A stretch of 64,000 nucleotides of DNA from an uncultured Rickettsiales bacterium (GTDB lineage: Bacteria; Pseudomonadota; Alphaproteobacteria; Rickettsiales; UBA8987), in the NCBI GenBank assembly GCA_964588995.1, contig CAZPQM010000003.1, forward strand, positions 120,187-184,186, in the 5' to 3' direction. The position numbers and the translations under genes were made by a program. Shown piece by piece: positions 76 through 56,500 of the stretch. Under the pieces are notes generated by a model that saw nothing but the letters and a program-made list of their open reading frames with translations, did not search any database and had not been told where the DNA came from. The stretch's first letter is position 1. Each line of letters opens with the position of its first letter.

Positions 76-1371
76 ATGTATACTTCCCTCTATCGTTTCT
101 TATCCTATGCCGGTGGTCCGTTGATTGATTTTTACCTGATGCGGCGTAAGCAGGTGGGCAAGGAAGATCCGAAACGCTATACCGAGCGGCTCGGGCATCC
201 CGGTTTTCCGCGTATGAGCGGGCCGTTGGTCTGGGTGCATGCGGCCAGCGTAGGCGAGGGGGTGTCGGTTTTGCCGCTCATCAAGGCGGTCGTGAATAAA
301 TACCGTGATGTCAATGTGCTGCTGACTACGGGCACGGTCACCTCCGCTAAAGTGCTGGAATCAAGGCTACCCAAGCGAGCGTTCCATCAATATGCTCCGA
401 TAGATAAGCTGGTAACGGTGCGGCGGTTTCTGGATCACTGGCGGCCCGATCTGGCGCTCTGGGTTGAATCTGAGTTGTGGCCGAATATGATCATTGAAAC
501 GCATCGCCGTGGATGCCCGCTTATTCAGATTAATGCGCGTTTATCGCCCAATTCCTATGAAAAATGGCAGAAATATAACAGTCTGGCGCGTGATATGCTT
601 ATCTGCTTTAGCCTAAGTCTGGCGCAGAGCGAGGAAGATGTCACCCGGCTGAAAAAACTGGGTGCGCCGAACGCAAAATGCCTCGGTAACCTGAAATTTG
701 ATGCACCTGCGCTTCCCGCAGATCCGAAAGAAACGGGTAAATTGGTTACTGCCACCGGTGAGCGCCCCATGTGGGTGGCGGCAAGTACGCATCCCGGTGA
801 GGATGAATTGATAGCTGATGCGCATATAAAACTGAAGTTGGCGCATGATAAAATACTGACGGTTATTATCCCGCGTCACCCGGAACGAGGCGAAGATATT
901 GAGCGGATGCTTAAAGAGAAAAAACTCACTGTCGCCCGGCGTAGTCAAAAGCAGGATATCGAGGAGAATACCGATATATATATTGCAGATACGATCGGCG
1001 AGCTTGGCATTTTTTATCGTATGGCGGGTATTACCTTTATGGGTGGTTCGCTGGTCGAGCATGGCGGACAGAATCCGCTCGAAGCGGCGAGGCTTGAATG
1101 CGCACTGCTGGTGGGCCCGCATACCGCTAGCTTTACCGATATTTATAACGAGCTGGAAAAGGAACATGCTGTTATCCGTGTGCGTGATAGCGATGCGCTC
1201 GCAGAGAAGGTTGGTGTGTTACTAAGTGACCATGAAAAGCAGGAGGATTTTGCCAGCCGCGCGATGAAATTGATGGCCTCGAAAAGCGGTATTCTGGAAC
1301 ATTATATGGACGCGCTCAGCCCTTACCTTAAGCCGATTTCGCGCGATATTGCCCCGGATGAGGACGCCTGA
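76..1371 (+). CDS. waaA: 3-deoxy-D-manno-octulosonic acid (Kdo) transferase
   Basis: ORF 46..1371. The N-terminal anchor MYTSLYRFLSYAGGPLIDFYLMRR and the block LVWVHAASVGEGVSVLPLI are WaaA/KdtA-like. It is followed by lpxK and a late acyltransferase with overlapping stop/start codons. ATG at 76 is preferred to the TTG at 46. Confidence 0.85.
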   Translation: MYTSLYRFLSYAGGPLIDFYLMRRKQVGKEDPKRYTERLGHPGFPRMSGPLVWVHAASVGEGVSVLPLIKAVVNKYRDVNVLLTTGTVTSAKVLESRLPKRAFHQYAPIDKLVTVRRFLDHWRPDLALWVESELWPNMIIETHRRGCPLIQINARLSPNSYEKWQKYNSLARDMLICFSLSLAQSEEDVTRLKKLGAPNAKCLGNLKFDAPALPADPKETGKLVTATGERPMWVAASTHPGEDELIADAHIKLKLAHDKILTVIIPRHPERGEDIERMLKEKKLTVARRSQKQDIEENTDIYIADTIGELGIFYRMAGITFMGGSLVEHGGQNPLEAARLECALLVGPHTASFTDIYNELEKEHAVIRVRDSDALAEKVGVLLSDHEKQEDFASRAMKLMASKSGILEHYMDALSPYLKPISRDIAPDEDA

Positions 1372-2431
1372 TTTCTGGCGGTTCAATGGCTTTCGGGCGA
1401 ATGCGCTGCTGCCGCTTTCGGTCCTTTACTATATCACGCATCGCCTGTCTCAATGCTGGAAACGCGGTAAAATGCCTTATGATGCAGGCGTACCGGTTAT
1501 TTGCGTCGGCAATATGACAGCAGGCGGTGCAGGTAAAACGCCAACGGTGCTCGCGCTGGCACGGCGTTTGAAAAAGCGGGGCAAAAAGCCTGCCATTCTA
1601 AGCCGGGGCTATAAACGGGCTGTGGCTGATTTGATCAAGGTCGATCCGGCGGAGCATACGCCGGAGCAGGTCGGGGACGAGCCGTTGTTGATCGCCAGGC
1701 AGTTCCCCTGCTATGTATCAGCTAATCGTGCGGAGGCGGCTAGGCAGGCGGTCACCGACGGCGCGGATATCCTCCTGATGGATGACGGATTGCAGCATCA
1801 CAGCCTGAAAAAAGATAAGCAGCTGCTGGTGATTGATGGCGGATATGGTTTTGGCAACGAGATGCTGCTTCCGGCCGGGCCACTGCGCGATAAACCGGGT
1901 AATATCCTGCCGCAGGTAGACGCTGTCCTTATTATTCGGAGTCCGCAGGCAGATGTTGAAAAATATCTGTCACGGCATCTCATGCTCCCTCGCCCTAGCC
2001 CTCTCCCCGAGGGAGAGGGGATAAAGAAAATAAGCTCCCCCTCTGAACGAGAGCAAGATGGTGTAGCTGGCGAGGGTAAGGAAATGACTTGTTACCATGC
2101 CAGCATGCAACCCCTGTCGTTGCCGGACAAGCAGCAAAACTACGTAGCCTTTGCCGGGCTGGGCAGGCCGGAAAAGTTTTTTGATATGCTGGTCGAGCAT
2201 GGGCTCACACTGGCCAAAGCGATACGCTATCCGGATCATCACGCTTATGCGGAAAGCGACAGGGAGCGGCTAATACGTGAAGCGGAAGAGGCTAACGCCA
2301 CGCTGATCACAACGCGAAAAGATGCGGTTAAACTGCCCGAGGATTTCAGAGAGCAGGTGGCGGTGGTCGATATAGAGCTCGTTATAGAAAATGAAGAGCA
2401 ATTCATCGATAGATTACTGGATTCTACATGA
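1358..2431 (+). CDS. lpxK: tetraacyldisaccharide 4'-kinase, carrying a 30-codon in-frame repeat insertion
   Basis: P-loop GNMTAGGAGKTP, GDEPLL and AFAGLGRPEKFF blocks are typical of LpxK. ATG 1358 (MRTPDFW) overlaps the waaA stop. The stop overlaps the next start (ATGA at 2428). Confidence 0.85.
   Translation: MRTPDFWRFNGFRANALLPLSVLYYITHRLSQCWKRGKMPYDAGVPVICVGNMTAGGAGKTPTVLALARRLKKRGKKPAILSRGYKRAVADLIKVDPAEHTPEQVGDEPLLIARQFPCYVSANRAEAARQAVTDGADILLMDDGLQHHSLKKDKQLLVIDGGYGFGNEMLLPAGPLRDKPGNILPQVDAVLIIRSPQADVEKYLSRHLMLPRPSPLPEGEGIKKISSPSEREQDGVAGEGKEMTCYHASMQPLSLPDKQQNYVAFAGLGRPEKFFDMLVEHGLTLAKAIRYPDHHAYAESDRERLIREAEEANATLITTRKDAVKLPEDFREQVAVVDIELVIENEEQFIDRLLDST
1987..2076. repeat. 90-bp nested palindromic element inside the lpxK reading frame
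   Basis: Outer inverted 8-mers CCCTCGCC (1987-1994) and GGCGAGGG (2069-2076). Inner perfect stem CCCTCTCCC-cga-GGGAGAGGG (1999-2019). The length is exactly 30 codons and translates to the low-complexity ...PSPLPEGEGIKKISSPSEREQDGVAGEG... Confidence 0.7.
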
Positions 2432-3282
2432 AACACGTCAGGTATTTACTGGAATATATCATGGTGAGGGCGGTATTTCTCCTTTTTCGCCTGATGCCAT
2501 TCGATACGGCGTCCAAAACCGGCGGGCAGCTCGCGCGCTTTATTGGCCCCAAAACCGGGGCGCACCGGACGGCATGGCGTAATTTACGGCGCATTTATCC
2601 GGATAAATCGGATGCGGAACTGGAAACGATCGCGCTTGGTGTCTGGGAGAATCTTGGCCGAACGGTAGGTGAGTTTCCGCATTTGCCGCACCTGAAGGGG
2701 GCCGCTTTTGCCAAACGGGTGAAAGTGAAAGGAAAAGAAAAAATCGATGCGCTGCAAACAAAAAAGTTTTTCTTTTTTTCCGCTCATATCGGCAATTGGG
2801 AACTAGCGGCACATACGGGTGCAGTGATGGGCTACCCAATGATGCTGATTTACCGTCCGGCGAATAATCCCTATGTCGAGAAGCTGATTCAAACATCGCG
2901 CCGGGAGACCTTAAGCGCGATGTTTCCTAAAGGAAAAGAAGCGGCGCGTGCGATGATCAAAAGCCTACGTGACGGCGAGACGATTGGCATGTTAATGGAC
3001 CAGAAAATGAATGAAGGCATGCCGATACCGTTTTTAGGGCATGATGCCATGACGGCCACGGCGATCGCAGAATGTGCGGTCAAATTTGATGTGCCGCTCG
3101 TGCCGGTGCATTTAGTACGGAGGGAGGGTGCGTATTTCGAAGTAATCGTCGGTGATGTGATGTACCCGGCGCAGAAAGATGTGAAAACTCTGCTGACTGA
3201 AATCAATGCGATTATCGGAGGATGGGTAGAGGCGCATCCCGAGCAGTGGTTTTGGGTGCATAATCGCTGGCCGAAAGGGTAG
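2428..3282 (+). CDS. lipid A late acyltransferase (LpxL/HtrB lysophospholipid acyltransferase family)
   Basis: 284 aa. The HX4D/E-type motif SAHIGNWEL and PANNPYVEKL are typical of the family. Third gene of the waaA-lpxK operon. Confidence 0.7.
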   Translation: MKHVRYLLEYIMVRAVFLLFRLMPFDTASKTGGQLARFIGPKTGAHRTAWRNLRRIYPDKSDAELETIALGVWENLGRTVGEFPHLPHLKGAAFAKRVKVKGKEKIDALQTKKFFFFSAHIGNWELAAHTGAVMGYPMMLIYRPANNPYVEKLIQTSRRETLSAMFPKGKEAARAMIKSLRDGETIGMLMDQKMNEGMPIPFLGHDAMTATAIAECAVKFDVPLVPVHLVRREGAYFEVIVGDVMYPAQKDVKTLLTEINAIIGGWVEAHPEQWFWVHNRWPKG

Positions 3283-6846: not shown

Positions 6847-6850
6847 GTTC

Positions 6851-7212
6851 GTCATGGCGAAGTACAACGTGCTGAAGCCATCTCGTGCATGCTTTCCTCT
6901 ATTTTACCCGGGCTTGACCCGGGTATCTAGCTCAGTTTGAGGCGGTGAAGACCCTCTGGTCAAGCCCGAGGGAGGCAGGATGGCACGTCATTGCGAGGCG
7001 TGAAACGACGAAGCAATCTGGTTCGGCTCGGTATTTGTGGCCTGAGATGACGTCGCCTTCGGCTCGTCATGACGATGCTATTTTCCCGTCATTGCGAGCG
7101 ACCAGAGGGAGCGCGGCAATCTTGTGCCACTTGCCTGAGACGGCTACGGCGTTTACACGCCTCGCCGTGACGATACCAGATGCCTGAGATCGCTACACGA
7201 CGCTCGCGATGT
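6851..7212. repeat. array of six GTCAT...ATCTC hairpin units plus one GGCTTGACC palindrome between the convergent sco1 and aat 3' ends
   Basis: Units at 6851-6884(+), 6987-7019(+), 7044-7073(-), 7088-7122(+), 7137-7171(-) and 7186-7211(-). GGCTTGACC element at 6907-6972. The array starts 5 nt after the sco1 stop and ends 10 nt before the aat stop. Confidence 0.8.
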
Positions 7213-7221
7213 TAGGTTCCC

Positions 7222-7803: not shown

Positions 7804-7920
7804 AGGCTAATTATTTACAGTATTGTAGGGTGTATCTGGGAGTTTTTTTCCAAGGTAAAGGGTACCCTGCCATAGTTCAGTAAAATACCTGTGGTAGCAG
7901 TGTCCTTCATGGGGAATGTT

Positions 7921-8041
7921 GTGATGACGTCGCCTTCGGCTCGTCATGACGATGTTATTTTCCCGTCATTGCGAGCGACCAGAGGGAGCGCGGCAATCTT
8001 TTGTAACTTGGCAGAGATCGCTTCACTTCGTTCGCGATGAC
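7921..8041. repeat. array of three GTCAT...ATCTC hairpin units downstream of the phosphodiesterase gene
   Basis: Units at 7921-7950(-), 7965-7999(+) and 8014-8041(-). Bases 7923-8000 are a 78-nt near-identical copy of 7046-7123. The array ends 9 nt from the stop codon at 8051. Confidence 0.8.
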
Positions 8042-8050
8042 GATGTTTTT

Positions 8051-28641: not shown

Positions 28642-28730
28642 CCTGTTTCCTTCAATTTGAATTAAATTATACCATAAAAAGGTGAAGAAAAGGTTAATTG
28701 AATGGCGATCAGTGCATTATTACAAAAGTC

Positions 28731-28949
28731 GTCATTGCGAGCGGCGTAGCCGCGCGGCAATCTGGTGTAGGGGGCAACTAGCCTGAGACGGCCACGGCGT
28801 TAAAACGCCTCGCCGTGACGGAGCCAGCTGCCTGAGATTATGTCGCCTTCGGCTCGTAATGACGGGCATATGGCCTGAGATCACCACGTCGGGCTAAAGC
28901 CCTCCTCGTGATGACGGGCAAGCGATCCTTCGCTTTCGCTCAGGATGAC
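28731..28949. repeat. array of five GTCAT...ATCTC hairpin units downstream of rfbA
   Basis: Units at 28731-28763(+), 28784-28818(-), 28833-28862(-), 28877-28915(-) and 28922-28949(-, the CCTGAGCG...GGATC variant). The array ends 4 nt from the rfbA stop codon. Confidence 0.8.
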
Positions 28950-28953
28950 GGTG

Positions 28954-34156: not shown

Positions 34157-34295
34157 AATGTTGATTGGCTCCTCTGGCTATTCCCAAACGCACATGAAGG
34201 GTTGAAGTTTTTTGTATAGCCATCTTGCAAAAGACGCAAGCCTTCTCCCGTTGTAAGTTGTTAGGTGGAAGATGCCTATTATCCTTGCGGAGAGT

Positions 34296-34427
34296 GCTAG
34301 GGTGAGGGCGTCATTGCGAGGAGTGAAACGACGAAGCATCTCGTGCGGCTGGGTATATGAGCCTGAGATCGCTTCACTGCGTTCGCGATGACGGGGCAAG
34401 AGATCCTTCGACTTCGCTCAGAATGAC
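34296..34427. repeat. array of three hairpin units downstream of lysA, preceded by a GCTAGGGTGAGGG motif
   Basis: Units at 34310-34343(+), 34364-34391(-) and 34401-34427(-). The array ends 9 nt from the lysA stop. Bases 34296-34308 match the terminal 13-mer of the lpxK element (reverse strand) with one mismatch. Confidence 0.75.
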
Positions 34428-34436
34428 ACTGTAATA

Positions 34437-38481: not shown

Positions 38482-38832
38482 CTAATAATTCGGTATTCGC
38501 GAGTGAGGGGCTAGCTGAAATTCTTTTCGGCTGCTTTGCGAGCGCACGAAGAAGGCCCGGAGTCGTGCCTGACGTGCCGCTTCCATCTCTTCCTCTGTCA
38601 TCTGTTCCTCCTCGTCATCGTCGTCATTATTATTCTGATCGTTGCCTTGCGGTAACTTGCAGAAGCCGGTTATCTCATCACAAAAAAAACCATCTGCCGT
38701 GCCACCACAGGCGGATAGTAGAGACATAGAGGCAAGCGTCATCACGAGGAGACACAGCCGATGAAGTGATCTCGTGACGCGACTGCTTCCAAAGATTGCT
38801 TCGCTATGCTCGCAATGACTAATATCACTCAT
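38482..38832 (-). CDS. putative acidic lipoprotein; the 5' part of the ORF is built from hairpin repeat units
   Basis: 116-aa ORF. Internal [14 protein letters not shown] lipobox (ATG 38742). Mature part contains [21 protein letters not shown]. Residues 1-30 are translated repeat ([11 protein letters not shown]...). The true start is uncertain. Confidence 0.4.
38738..38823. repeat. two GTCAT...ATCTC hairpin units directly downstream of argH
   Basis: Units at 38738-38773(+, gtcatcacgagg...gtgatctc) and 38796-38823(-, aagattgcttcgctatgctcgcaatgac). The second ends 5 nt from the argH stop. Confidence 0.7.
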
Positions 38833-53515: not shown

Positions 53516-56500
53516 ATGAACGCTCCAACGACCGCACAACTCTTTAAAGCCCAGAAACGTCAGGCGGAAAATATATTCGAGGACGTTATGAACCGCTCGA
53601 AAGGGGTGGATGTCGATGCTGAGCATAAAGCGTTCATGGAACGGTTTTTTAATCAAACGGATCGTATCTCACACGCCAGTGGTTTAGGTTTTCAGCGGGA
53701 TAAATGGTTTGCTAACAGTGGGATGGGTGCAGTCACCGGCGCTGATCAGTATGACGTCGTTCCACTTGCACAAAAATTCCCTTCCATGCACCGAGATGCG
53801 ACAAGGAACTATTACACATATGCGCCTGTGGCGGGCGATCTAATTGAACGTTATAAAGAAATGTACGTTACCGCGCCGGCGGAAGGGCTGATTGACGCAC
53901 GGAAAGAAGGTCGCGCTTCACAGCGCCATTTCCGCCTGGGGGTGGAAAGTGTGCCGGAGGGTGTATATGCAAACTCTTATTTAATGAATATGAACTTGGT
54001 GAAGCTGGCAGCAGATGGCAAGCAGTTTACCGTTAAATATGAGCGGGATGAATGGGGCAACCAGTTGAAAGTGCAAAAAAAGCTGGCTTTTACAGAACAG
54101 GAAGCGGCAGAGGCGGTAGCAGAGGCGATGCAAACCGCAGACTTTTTATTGGAAAACTATAAGAGCATTTTTTCGGACGTTCGCGTCGATGGCCAGGCAC
54201 TGCCGGATCGGATTGAAAATCTCGATCAGTTACAGGCAATGGTGGATAAGGCAAAAAAAGAGGTGAAGAATAGTGAGTTTGCTAACGATTCGGATAACTA
54301 TAAAAAGGCTATGAAGGCCTTAGCTCAGGTCGAAGTGCCCTGGAGTAAGGTGGTGCATTATTGGAAGAAGGTAAAACCGGAGCGAAATGCAACGATAGTC
54401 GCCGGTGTAACCTCGACCGGAGACATGGAGGCGCATATTGAGAAATATGGAACGTCAGCCTATCAGGAAATTCCCCGTTCTAATCTGCTTGCCCCGCAAT
54501 CTGTGGTGCGTAACTCGGAGAGAGCGTTTACCCGTTCGATTGTGGAGCAGTTGGCGGACGTAAGACAAAAAAGTAATGAGGAATTTGAAAAAAAGTTAGC
54601 AGAATTAGGCGGCAAAGTTACCTATAATGATCAAAAGAATCTCTATACGGTACGTCTGCGAGGTGGAAAGCTGTTAATGGATGTATATGCAGAACCACTT
54701 GCGAAAGATTTTATACAAAACTCAGAGGACGATACTGAAACAAAATACAAAAGAGGTAAAGATCATCGGACCGAGATTGTCAGTATCCGCGAGCTCAAAG
54801 CCGAAATAGCCCGTTCAATGCCGAAGTTTCAGCATGGGCAAAATGCGAATAGCACCACGGAGATCGTACACTCGCAGCGTTCCTGGGATATTTACGAGGT
54901 AGCAAGAGACGAAGCAGGTAAGTGGGGTATGCAGGCAAAGGACTGGGTGCATGTAGCCGGGTTGCCGATGGATCCGGCAGCGCGTGAACGGCTGCGTTTT
55001 GATCCGTATGCCGGGCTGGAATTCCGTATGGAGGCGCTTAAGCATGCGGAAGGCACGAAAGAATATAAACACAACATGGAACGCTATAAACAGGCCTTTT
55101 TACGGAAAAATCTCGGGTTTCTTACCAATTTTAAAGACGAACAAACCGGCGAATTATCCAACGATCACAACGATTTCCCTAAGACAAAAAAAGAAGCGGT
55201 ACGCTTAAAAAAGCAAGGCGAACTTCCGAAAGATTACGATGAAGAGCTCAACAACGCGGATTTACAAAAGAAATTATGGAATAAGTGGCAGGAGATGACG
55301 CAGGATGTCGATTTTTCACAGGATAAGGAGGAAGTGAAAAAGGCATTGAAAGGGCGTGCCTTTGGCCCGAATCCGAATGAAACCTATCAGCCTGGTGATC
55401 AAGTGGACCTATACCCTACCTATTACCACGATTATTTGCTTCATGTCTGGAACCATCCCATGAACGCCAAGCTGAGTTTGACCCACTATGGTGAGATCTC
55501 GCTTAGTAATAATCCTCCGTTGGTAGTTAATCGACATGGCGAGATGAAGCAGGCAAAGCCGATGCAGGAGGTCCGGCTGTACCATCCCAGCTTTGGCAAC
55601 TACCTATATGAACACTCAACGGGCGATGTAACCCACTCGTCCATGGGAGGAAGGGCGTTTGGCGGTGGCAATATCAAGGCGTTTGGTACATTTGGGCATG
55701 CTTATATTCACGACAAGTATATGATGGATTATATTAAACAATACAATCCTTTTAAAAATAAACGTGCTAAAGATTATTTTACCGACCACGAGCGCTGGGC
55801 GCCGGAGACTTTTACGGATGCTTCCGAAAATCTGAATACCAGACTGATTGAAGAAGCGACCAAGCTCAGTAGATATATTTTCAAGTATGAGTTGGCCAGT
55901 ACGACGGCAGATGACGCATTACCTCGAATAAGGGCGGCTAAAATCATGGCTGACACTCATCGGGAGCTCACCCTTTCGTTTAAAAATATGGGGTCGGCCG
56001 TTGCGCGTTTTGTAGGTGGCGGTGTGCTAGGTGCCGGGTTGACTGTCGGAGCGTCCGTAGTGGGCGGGTTTGCGCTGACCACGGTCGGCTTTGCGGCGAC
56101 GGCAGTGGTAGCACCTATAGCGGGCGTGATTGCCGGTGCCAAGATGATGAAAAATTATGCGGAAACCCGGTTTGTCGACTTACATGATTTCGAACGGCAA
56201 TCGAAGAGTGATGTATGGCAGATATATGAGAACCGGGTACGGGACGGAGGCCTTTTCGGTCTGGAGGCGCTTAAACAGGATGCATCACTTTTTTTAAGAG
56301 CGCTCAGGAAACTAGCGTATCAGCATAACTATATGCGGACCGGTATTGAGAGTACGGACACCGTTGGGCGTTTAAGCTTATTAGCAGGTGGAGTGTTTTT
56401 CGCCGGAGCAATTACGGCTGCAGCTACCTCCTACCTGGCGGTAGCCGCCGTACCTATTTTGCTGGCGGCAGGTGTAGTATCTTCAGCGGTTGGTGCTACG

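Follow-up and report, generated by a model that had tools for sequence, protein, structure and literature searches.

The lpxK gene (tetraacyldisaccharide 4'-kinase) of an uncultured Rickettsiales bacterium carries 90 nucleotides (nt) that are best explained as a copy of the BoxC/PIT/TM repeat, most likely an inverted pair made of an intact module (1987-2019), a spacer and a decayed partner that runs to position 2076, fixed within the coding sequence. A probability of about 0.8 is given to this reading. The gene belongs to a stretch of 64,000 nt of contig CAZPQM010000003.1, hereafter the window, to which all positions refer unless a locus number (L) precedes them. An earlier inspection of the sequence (the original prediction) had described a 90-bp nested palindromic element at this place, bounded by inverted 8-mers, containing a perfect 9-bp hairpin and exactly 30 codons long, so that a frame of 357 codons stays open. 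Every one of these features was found again where it had been placed, and the central proposal, that a palindromic repeat had been absorbed in frame into lpxK, is borne out by an exact match to a repeat family and by the lack of the segment in 112 homologues.

BoxC/PIT/TM repeats have been known since the 1990s and occur across phyla; they were reportedly described in Escherichia coli and many other bacteria by Bachellier and colleagues and, in 2000, by Hoyne and Maher. To our knowledge they have neither an accepted function nor an accepted means of spread. The BoxC repeat of E. coli was later named potential intrastrand triplex (PIT) element and then triplex motif (TM) (Holder et al., 2015, PMC4666352). 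The genome of E. coli K-12 contains 23 TM copies, always intergenic, including five pairs in inverted configuration; genomic variability is elevated around the copies, and no transposase or integrase is found near them (PMC4666352). The motif forms a stable triplex in vitro, clear evidence for the structure in vivo being lacking (PMC4666352).

The left part of the insert, read on the minus strand, shows the three-block structure that defines BoxC/PIT/TM (a pyrimidine arm, a purine arm and a G-rich third block of 9 nt each, with loops of 3-6 nt between them) together with the family consensus, and it matches exactly the 26-base pattern CCCTCNCCCNNNCCCTCTCCCN{3,5}GGGAGAGGG, for which the computed chance expectation is about 1e-10 per window. 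It was compared with E. coli TM no. 17, CCCTCTCCC-TGA-GGGAGAGGG-TTA-GGGTGAGGG (Table 1 of PMC4666352): both copies are built as 9-3-9-3-9, and 26 of the 27 block bases are identical, the one difference being C for T at position 4 of the third block, which creates one mismatched triad in place of T*A:T. One genome per bacterial species was scanned with the 26-base pattern; at least 120 stretches matched, and the matches listed hold 147 copies, the set to which the copy counts below refer. Matches came from Pseudomonas, Enterobacteriaceae, Acinetobacter, Azospirillum, Planctomycetota, Chloroflexota, cyanobacteria, Acidobacteriota, Verrucomicrobiota, Omnitrophota and others. The sequences that flank the 147 copies are unlike between taxa and repeated within one genome. 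The peptide P-x-P-S-P-L-P-E-G-E-G encoded by the insert corresponds to the standard peptide product of the module; a full-text literature search for such encoded peptides (PLPEGEG and similar) gave no match. On sequence grounds, the left 33-34 nt can be assigned securely to a repeat-derived BoxC/PIT/TM module.

The original prediction had noted that the terminal 13-mer of the insert recurs at 34296-34308 beside a hairpin array, and had named two outcomes that would speak against it, a homologous segment in distant orthologues and the lack of any other copy; neither applies, although the other copy is a partial one. The site is present and extends to a partial module at 34289-34308 that matches 18 of 20 bases, a similarity that was not reached in 100 shuffles even with up to three mismatches; the 13-mer alone is not significant (1.45 matches expected with up to two mismatches). 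Hairpin repeats of the GTCATTGCGAG type form an array directly beside the partial copy.

The host gene encodes a full LpxK. Its product matches Pfam PF02606 over residues 15-355 (E = 7.6e-87), a full-length profile match accompanied by the P-loop, the conserved acidic residues and, in the structure model, the LpxK fold. Residues invariant in 113 aligned LpxK sequences are all retained, including the P-loop G56-T61 and D142-D143-G144. Alignment with 25 and then with 112 homologues places about 33 extra residues at one single position. Between conserved anchors at residues 194 and 264 the linker of the window protein measures 69 residues; in the 112 homologues the median length is 35.5, the 95th percentile 38 and the longest linker 52. 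Distant orthologues lack a homologous segment, and the right 56 nt of the insert are as much in excess relative to them as the module itself. The insert encodes LPRPSPLPEGEGIKKISSPSEREQDGVAGEG in the only one of its three sense frames that is free of stop codons.

The structural setting was examined on an AlphaFold2 model built on the homologue alignment, with a mean predicted local distance difference test score (pLDDT) of 89.9. Residues 211-240 form a coil with a pLDDT of about 49-53, placed between a helix (200-208) and a strand (244-252), and the blocks that flank the insert reach at least 91 (residues 241-250 at 91). The top matches of the model in the PDB are the LpxK structures of Aquifex aeolicus, on which the model superposes outside the insert; the sequence alignment to LpxK of the PDB covers residues 15-192 and 258-349 and leaves 193-257, between both domains, unaligned. 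In the model the insert lies in the connection between the two LpxK domains, away from the conserved cores, and forms a 30-residue loop rich in Pro, Gly, Glu and Ser that is probably disordered. The earlier suggestion that the element is tolerated as a loop agrees well with this low-confidence coil between two well-modelled domains. We infer that LpxK with the insert is made and active; the tryptic peptides HLMLPRPSPLPEGEGIK and ISSPSEREQDGVAGEGK are predicted to cover it.

The same linker received a different repeat in another lineage. The lpxK gene of the nearest relative (P0002, L002; Logan SRR24236059), with 49-52% identity and the second-longest linker, contains at L002:957-1037 a palindromic element that belongs to GTCATTGCGAG, the family of the intergenic arrays of the window, in frame in the inter-domain linker. 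Its sequence is CGTCATTGCGAGCGAAACGAAGCAATCC...GGATTGC...TCGCTCGCGATGACGG, with the palindrome CGTCATTGCGAG...GCAATCC...GGATTGC...CTCGCGATGACGG and the peptide AVIASETKQSGPMPAGLPRSLDSLAMT, and in the aligned linker its start precedes that of the window insert by about 14 residues. Because the nearest relative carries a different repeat there, two unrelated repeats have been absorbed independently, and the inter-domain linker of LpxK is a permissive site that was struck more than once.

Fixation in frame also recurs for the module in other genes. In other phyla, modules lie in frame in Pfam-confirmed genes for LigA, a YgiQ-type radical SAM protein, UDP-galactopyranose mutase (Glf) and PriA (loci L046, L080, L116 and L107), which brings in-frame fixation, judged from the reading frames, to at least four of the 147 copies. 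The LigA case concerns the NAD-dependent DNA ligase of a Planctomycetota metagenome-assembled genome (MAG), whose adenylation domain is split by the module, and the YgiQ-type protein of Polaromonas carries the peptide SPHPSPLPEGEG, the same as in the insert. Since in-frame copies occur in lpxK and in the genes for LigA, YgiQ, PriA and Glf, an intergenic location is not universal for BoxC. No description of in-frame BoxC fixation was found in the triplex-motif paper (PMC4666352) or in the literature searched. Long open reading frames (ORFs) around modules in the high-GC loci L009, L034, L042 and L112 were read as antisense or spurious frames and left uncounted.

Translated modules were also observed at gene ends and between genes. 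The LpxK homologues P0074 and P0028 have C-terminal extensions that resemble translated BoxC-type modules (e.g. PIPLPGGERERAAP...PSPLGEREGPAAQRREGEG), which points to other lpxK genes whose 3' ends extend into such repeats. At L057 (around 1521-1554) a molybdopterin oxidoreductase-like and a cytochrome c-like sequence, identified as such from the translation, stand in one frame bridged by the module-derived peptides PPLPPGEGWGEG; this locus may represent a gene fusion made by the repeat.

Whether the 90 nt form one unit was considered separately from the identity of the left module. An inverted partner within 120 nt accompanies 27 of the 147 copies, with the third blocks outward as in the insert, and the spans of these 27 pairs, with a median of 97 nt and a range of 73-147 nt, include the 90 nt found here. 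Where the third block varies, both terminal 8-mers have G:C, a variant that occurs in none of the other 147 copies (A in 129, T in 16, C in 2), which speaks for the two ends being parts of one unit. The block order is preserved when the right half is aligned, with gaps, to the consensus of the module. On these data, which are suggestive, the right 56 nt are best read as a decayed inverted partner module; of the 90-bp element as first proposed, the left 33-34 nt stand as repeat and the remainder fits the module weakly (p ~0.03).

The reading of the insert as an in-frame BoxC pair has a number of results to its disadvantage. About 68 kb of this genome hold one full and one partial copy of the module; the Logan contigs that extend the window by 4.2 kb on its upstream side add no copy. 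The databases contain no close relative in which the site is empty: among about 5.8 billion sequences searched, the only near-identical protein was the product of the same gene, and because the next LpxK is just 49% identical, the age of the insertion and its exact boundaries cannot be fixed. We know of no mobility mechanism and of no transposase for BoxC/PIT/TM repeats. No direct repeat is common to the flanks of the insert (...CATGCT / TAAGGA...), which means that there is no target-site duplication. The edit distance that separates the right half from the consensus is 10, and 35 of 1040 control windows (3.4%, p ~0.03) come equally close. Local alignment of the left half with the reverse complement of the right half recovers the 8-mer alone, with equal scores in 79 of the 2000 shuffles and in 69 of the 4568 genomic windows compared. 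By inspection, eight of the nine purine-motif triads (G*G:C, A*A:T, T*A:T) are canonical in the window copy, and formation of a triplex there is less likely than at canonical copies because its third-strand block is mismatched; TM types with one mismatch are common in E. coli (PMC4666352).

The short extent of the similarity between the halves would be expected if only the module of 33-34 nt derived from a repeat and the other 56 nt were an unrelated, lineage-specific expansion of the loop or the product of a separate event, the match between the 8-mers being coincidental; a unit of 90 nt would then not exist. The absence of exact matches to the spacer and its junctions (GGGAGAGGGGATAAAGAAAATAAGC) in metagenome contigs fits this account as well. 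It is nevertheless considered unlikely, since all 30-33 residues are extra with respect to the 112 homologues, the span falls within that of known pairs and both ends share the variant base; moreover, the plus strand of the window has just two occurrences of GGCGAGGG, and the estimated chance that one falls within 100 nt and in the right orientation is about 0.3%. An ordinary variable surface loop that is palindromic by chance and has no repeat origin could be proposed on account of the site, the most length-variable part of LpxK, and of the single full copy in the window. This proposal is effectively refuted by the family match: all 26 specified bases agree with a cross-phylum family, the encoded peptide is that of the standard module, and a partial copy lies in an intergenic cluster.

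A role for the insert as a flexible hinge, as a membrane-facing loop or as a stable mRNA or DNA structure that slows translation or transcription and thereby tunes expression or co-translational folding was judged improbable. In its favor, the insert lies at a domain boundary, its RNA fold (-41.3 kcal/mol) is more stable than that of shuffles (-32.7 +/- 3.5; z = -2.46), pairing of the outer stem was maintained through a two-sided change with respect to the canonical blocks, and another hairpin repeat is retained in the LpxK linker of a second lineage. The peptide is nonetheless of low complexity and modelled as disordered, and PIT/TM elements showed neither promoter nor terminator nor polymerase-blocking activity when tested in vivo (PMC4666352). 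Even slighter chances are given to a decaying or inactive lpxK and to an assembly artefact, which could be suspected in a repeat-dense genome of an organism without close sequenced relatives. Against both speak the 357 open codons, the conservation of the invariant residues, the intact neighbouring waaA and lpxL-like genes and the confident structure model. The gene is, in addition, base-for-base identical within 7,075 nt of a separately built Logan assembly (run SRR7048223), the reads of which are possibly shared with the present one.

Three circumstances would explain how a BoxC pair survives in lpxK: it came to lie in the variable linker that joins the N-terminal P-loop domain to the C-terminal domain, its length is a multiple of three, and it is read in the sole stop-free sense frame. 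It would then be translated as a loop that leaves the LpxK fold and the catalytic residues intact, and we read it as a passenger, selfish or neutral DNA that selection has filtered, and not as an adaptive domain. Entry may have occurred by insertion based on a hairpin or a single strand, or during break repair, possibly aided by a DUF559 endonuclease; the missing target-site duplication speaks against a classical miniature inverted-repeat transposable element (MITE) of the DDE type. The minus-strand DNA of the insert is predicted to fold with -21.2 kcal/mol (shuffles -13.2 +/- 2.2; z = -3.67). The original prediction spoke of a mobile palindromic repeat: that the repeat is dispersed holds, and its mobility is what we infer.

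A possible partner for such movement emerged from loci with modules in other genomes. In locus L107 the insert in priA (L107:2407-2850) is a complete DUF559 domain (Pfam E = 3.8e-37), bracketed by two inverted modules and in frame. The sole other DUF559 gene in 865 kb of module loci, from Acinetobacter (L011:890-1470), is bracketed by modules as well. A sample of 80 metagenome loci (L124-L203) was then chosen by protein similarity to DUF559 alone, and a module was counted when it had at most 4 mismatches in 26 bases and lay within 200 nt of the gene. This was the case in 59 of the 80 loci, in 23 of them on both sides; both query proteins came from beside modules, and the sample possibly represents one subfamily only. 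At least 82 modules were found in 31 kb near DUF559 versus 22 in 139 kb of far flanks, a density about 17 times higher; with a permuted pattern as control, hits numbered 2 near and 1 far. In the commonest layout one module stops about 30 nt short of the detected coding match, and another overlaps the stop codon. Locus L141 contains two near-identical 79-nt pairs (1382-1460 and 1817-1895), each made of a plus module, a 10-nt spacer and a minus module, which are direct repeats flanking a DUF559 gene and have the pair layout of the window insert. In E. coli K-12, TM no. 9 lies 167 nt from the stop codon of ycjD, a DUF559 gene (L204:1706-2261) whose product is 43-44% identical to the DUF559 queries.

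The link between module and DUF559 is a statistical one, and it makes DUF559 a candidate that may serve as mobility partner or homing target of the BoxC family; titles and abstracts of the DUF559 literature searched do not describe it. Tentatively, BoxC/PIT/TM modules could be the ends or homing targets of a selfish unit, the autonomous form of which would carry DUF559 (a Vsr-like PD-(D/E)XK endonuclease). Pairs with a short spacer, among them the BoxC pairs of E. coli and the lpxK insert, would in that case be non-autonomous derivatives that settle in frame in essential genes across phyla, such as those for LpxK, LigA and PriA. Neither the lpxK insert nor the window contains a DUF559 gene or another endonuclease gene. 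If the proposal is true, DUF559 would supply the mobility partner that earlier BoxC/PIT/TM work reported missing, and if the link holds, movement of these repeats becomes directly testable.

The features of the insert, its host gene and the related repeats of the window are collected in Table 1.

Table 1. Positions of the insert, of its parts and of associated features in the window.
Feature	Position	Strand	Description
lpxK (tetraacyldisaccharide 4'-kinase)	1358-2431	+	357 aa counted from ATG; alternative TTG start at 1349
waaA	46-1371		First gene of the three-gene row waaA-lpxK-lpxL-like
Lipid A acyltransferase (lpxL-like) gene	2428-3282		Third in the row, after lpxK
Whole insert	1987-2076	+	90 nt = 30 codons, residues 210-240; outer 8-bp stem around a perfect and an imperfect inner hairpin
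Complete BoxC/PIT/TM module	1987-2019	-	CCCTCTCCC-TCG-GGGAGAGGG-CTA-GGGCGAGGG: hairpin arm, loop, purine arm, linker, third-strand block
Left terminal inverted 8-mer	1987-1994		CCCTCGCC; pairs with 2069-2076
Perfect 9-bp hairpin	1999-2019		CCCTCTCCC-CGA-GGGAGAGGG
A/T-rich spacer	2020-2032	+	GATAAAGAAAATA; between the inner hairpins, unpaired in predicted RNA and DNA folds
Imperfect second hairpin	2033-2068	+	AGCTCCCCCTCT...GGTGTAGCT; seen in the predicted fold
Right terminal inverted 8-mer	2069-2076	+	GGCGAGGG; pairs with 1987-1994
Second module copy, partial	34289-34308	-	CCCTCACCCTAGCACTCTCC; CTAG linker as in the insert, far hairpin arm absent; in an intergenic repeat cluster
Hairpin arrays, intergenic	6847-7221, 7804-8050, 28642-28953, 34157-34436		GTCATTGCGAG...CTCGCGATGAC type

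The chance expectation of the hairpin is 0.01 per window with three mismatches allowed. Scans of the whole window returned no Rfam family above its threshold and no tRNA or tmRNA, and tandem repeats were limited to two unrelated short arrays. The hairpin arrays hold several short families, namely GTCATTGCGAG..., GATGACGTCGCCTTCGGCTCGTCATGACG and GCCTGAGA..., and a unit of 103 nt is found at 7043-7145 and again at 7920-8022 with 91% identity. Hairpin arrays are adjoined at 6909-6968 by the 20-nt inverted repeat CGGGCTTGACCCGGGTATCT / AGACCCTCTGGTCAAGCCCG, which we take to resemble another widely dispersed repeat type. Downstream of argH, a small lipoprotein gene (38482-38832, minus strand) has its longest ORF starting within a GTCATTGCGAG-type repeat. 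This repeat (38792-38820), which looks intragenic, was rejected as an in-frame insertion because the lipoprotein most likely starts downstream of it (lipobox MSLLSACGG); the true start is probably a later Met before the lipobox, and annotation pipelines may over-extend the gene. A 1155-aa ORF at 53516-56983 has no Pfam match at E <= 1e-8. The best matches of GatA, with 73-74% identity, are uncultured, non-rickettsial Alphaproteobacteria near Rhodospirillales-type MAGs, a placement that resolves to the class Alphaproteobacteria only.

Several known systems invite comparison. The original prediction had invoked the Rickettsia palindromic elements (RPEs) as precedent (Ogata et al., 2000, 2002, as summarised in PMC10969869). 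In that account RPEs are palindromic repeats with an open frame, inserted in frame in housekeeping genes at positions compatible with the fold, and in these features the insert resembles them. Its module differs by its 33 nt, compared with about 100-150 bp for RPEs, and by its distribution, which is cross-phylum with a deep-branching alphaproteobacterium as the present host, compared with the genomes of Rickettsia. The precedent is accordingly kept as an analogy and not as membership; the insert is set apart as BoxC/PIT/TM by its family match. Intragenic in-frame fusions of ERIC and MITE sequences (Delihas, 2007, as cited in PMC10969869) also place a small open-frame repeat inside genes. From MITEs the insert departs by a terminal inverted repeat of 8 nt only and by the missing duplication of its target, and no parent insertion sequence is known for BoxC/TM. 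With homing-endonuclease-type elements the family shares the DUF559 genes flanked by modules, one whole unit being in frame in priA; unlike those elements, the lpxK insert has no endonuclease, and no intein or intron is involved.

The closest relation is with BoxC/PIT/TM itself, with which the insert shares the three-block layout and, putatively, the arrangement in inverted pairs (spanning about 85-130 nt); partial copies, such as the second one of the window, also exist in E. coli. The window copy differs from the intergenic copies of that species by its position in frame in an essential-type gene, by the C in its third block and by its putatively degraded partner. Both the repeat family and, from other families, the in-frame habit were known; the departure is a BoxC repeat that lies in frame and not between genes. 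A BoxC module can accordingly become fixed in frame in genes known to be essential from model bacteria. The phenomenon, best documented until now for RPEs, extends to a cross-phylum repeat, and the permissive linker of LpxK would be of use in protein engineering and help to spot such inserts in genome annotation.

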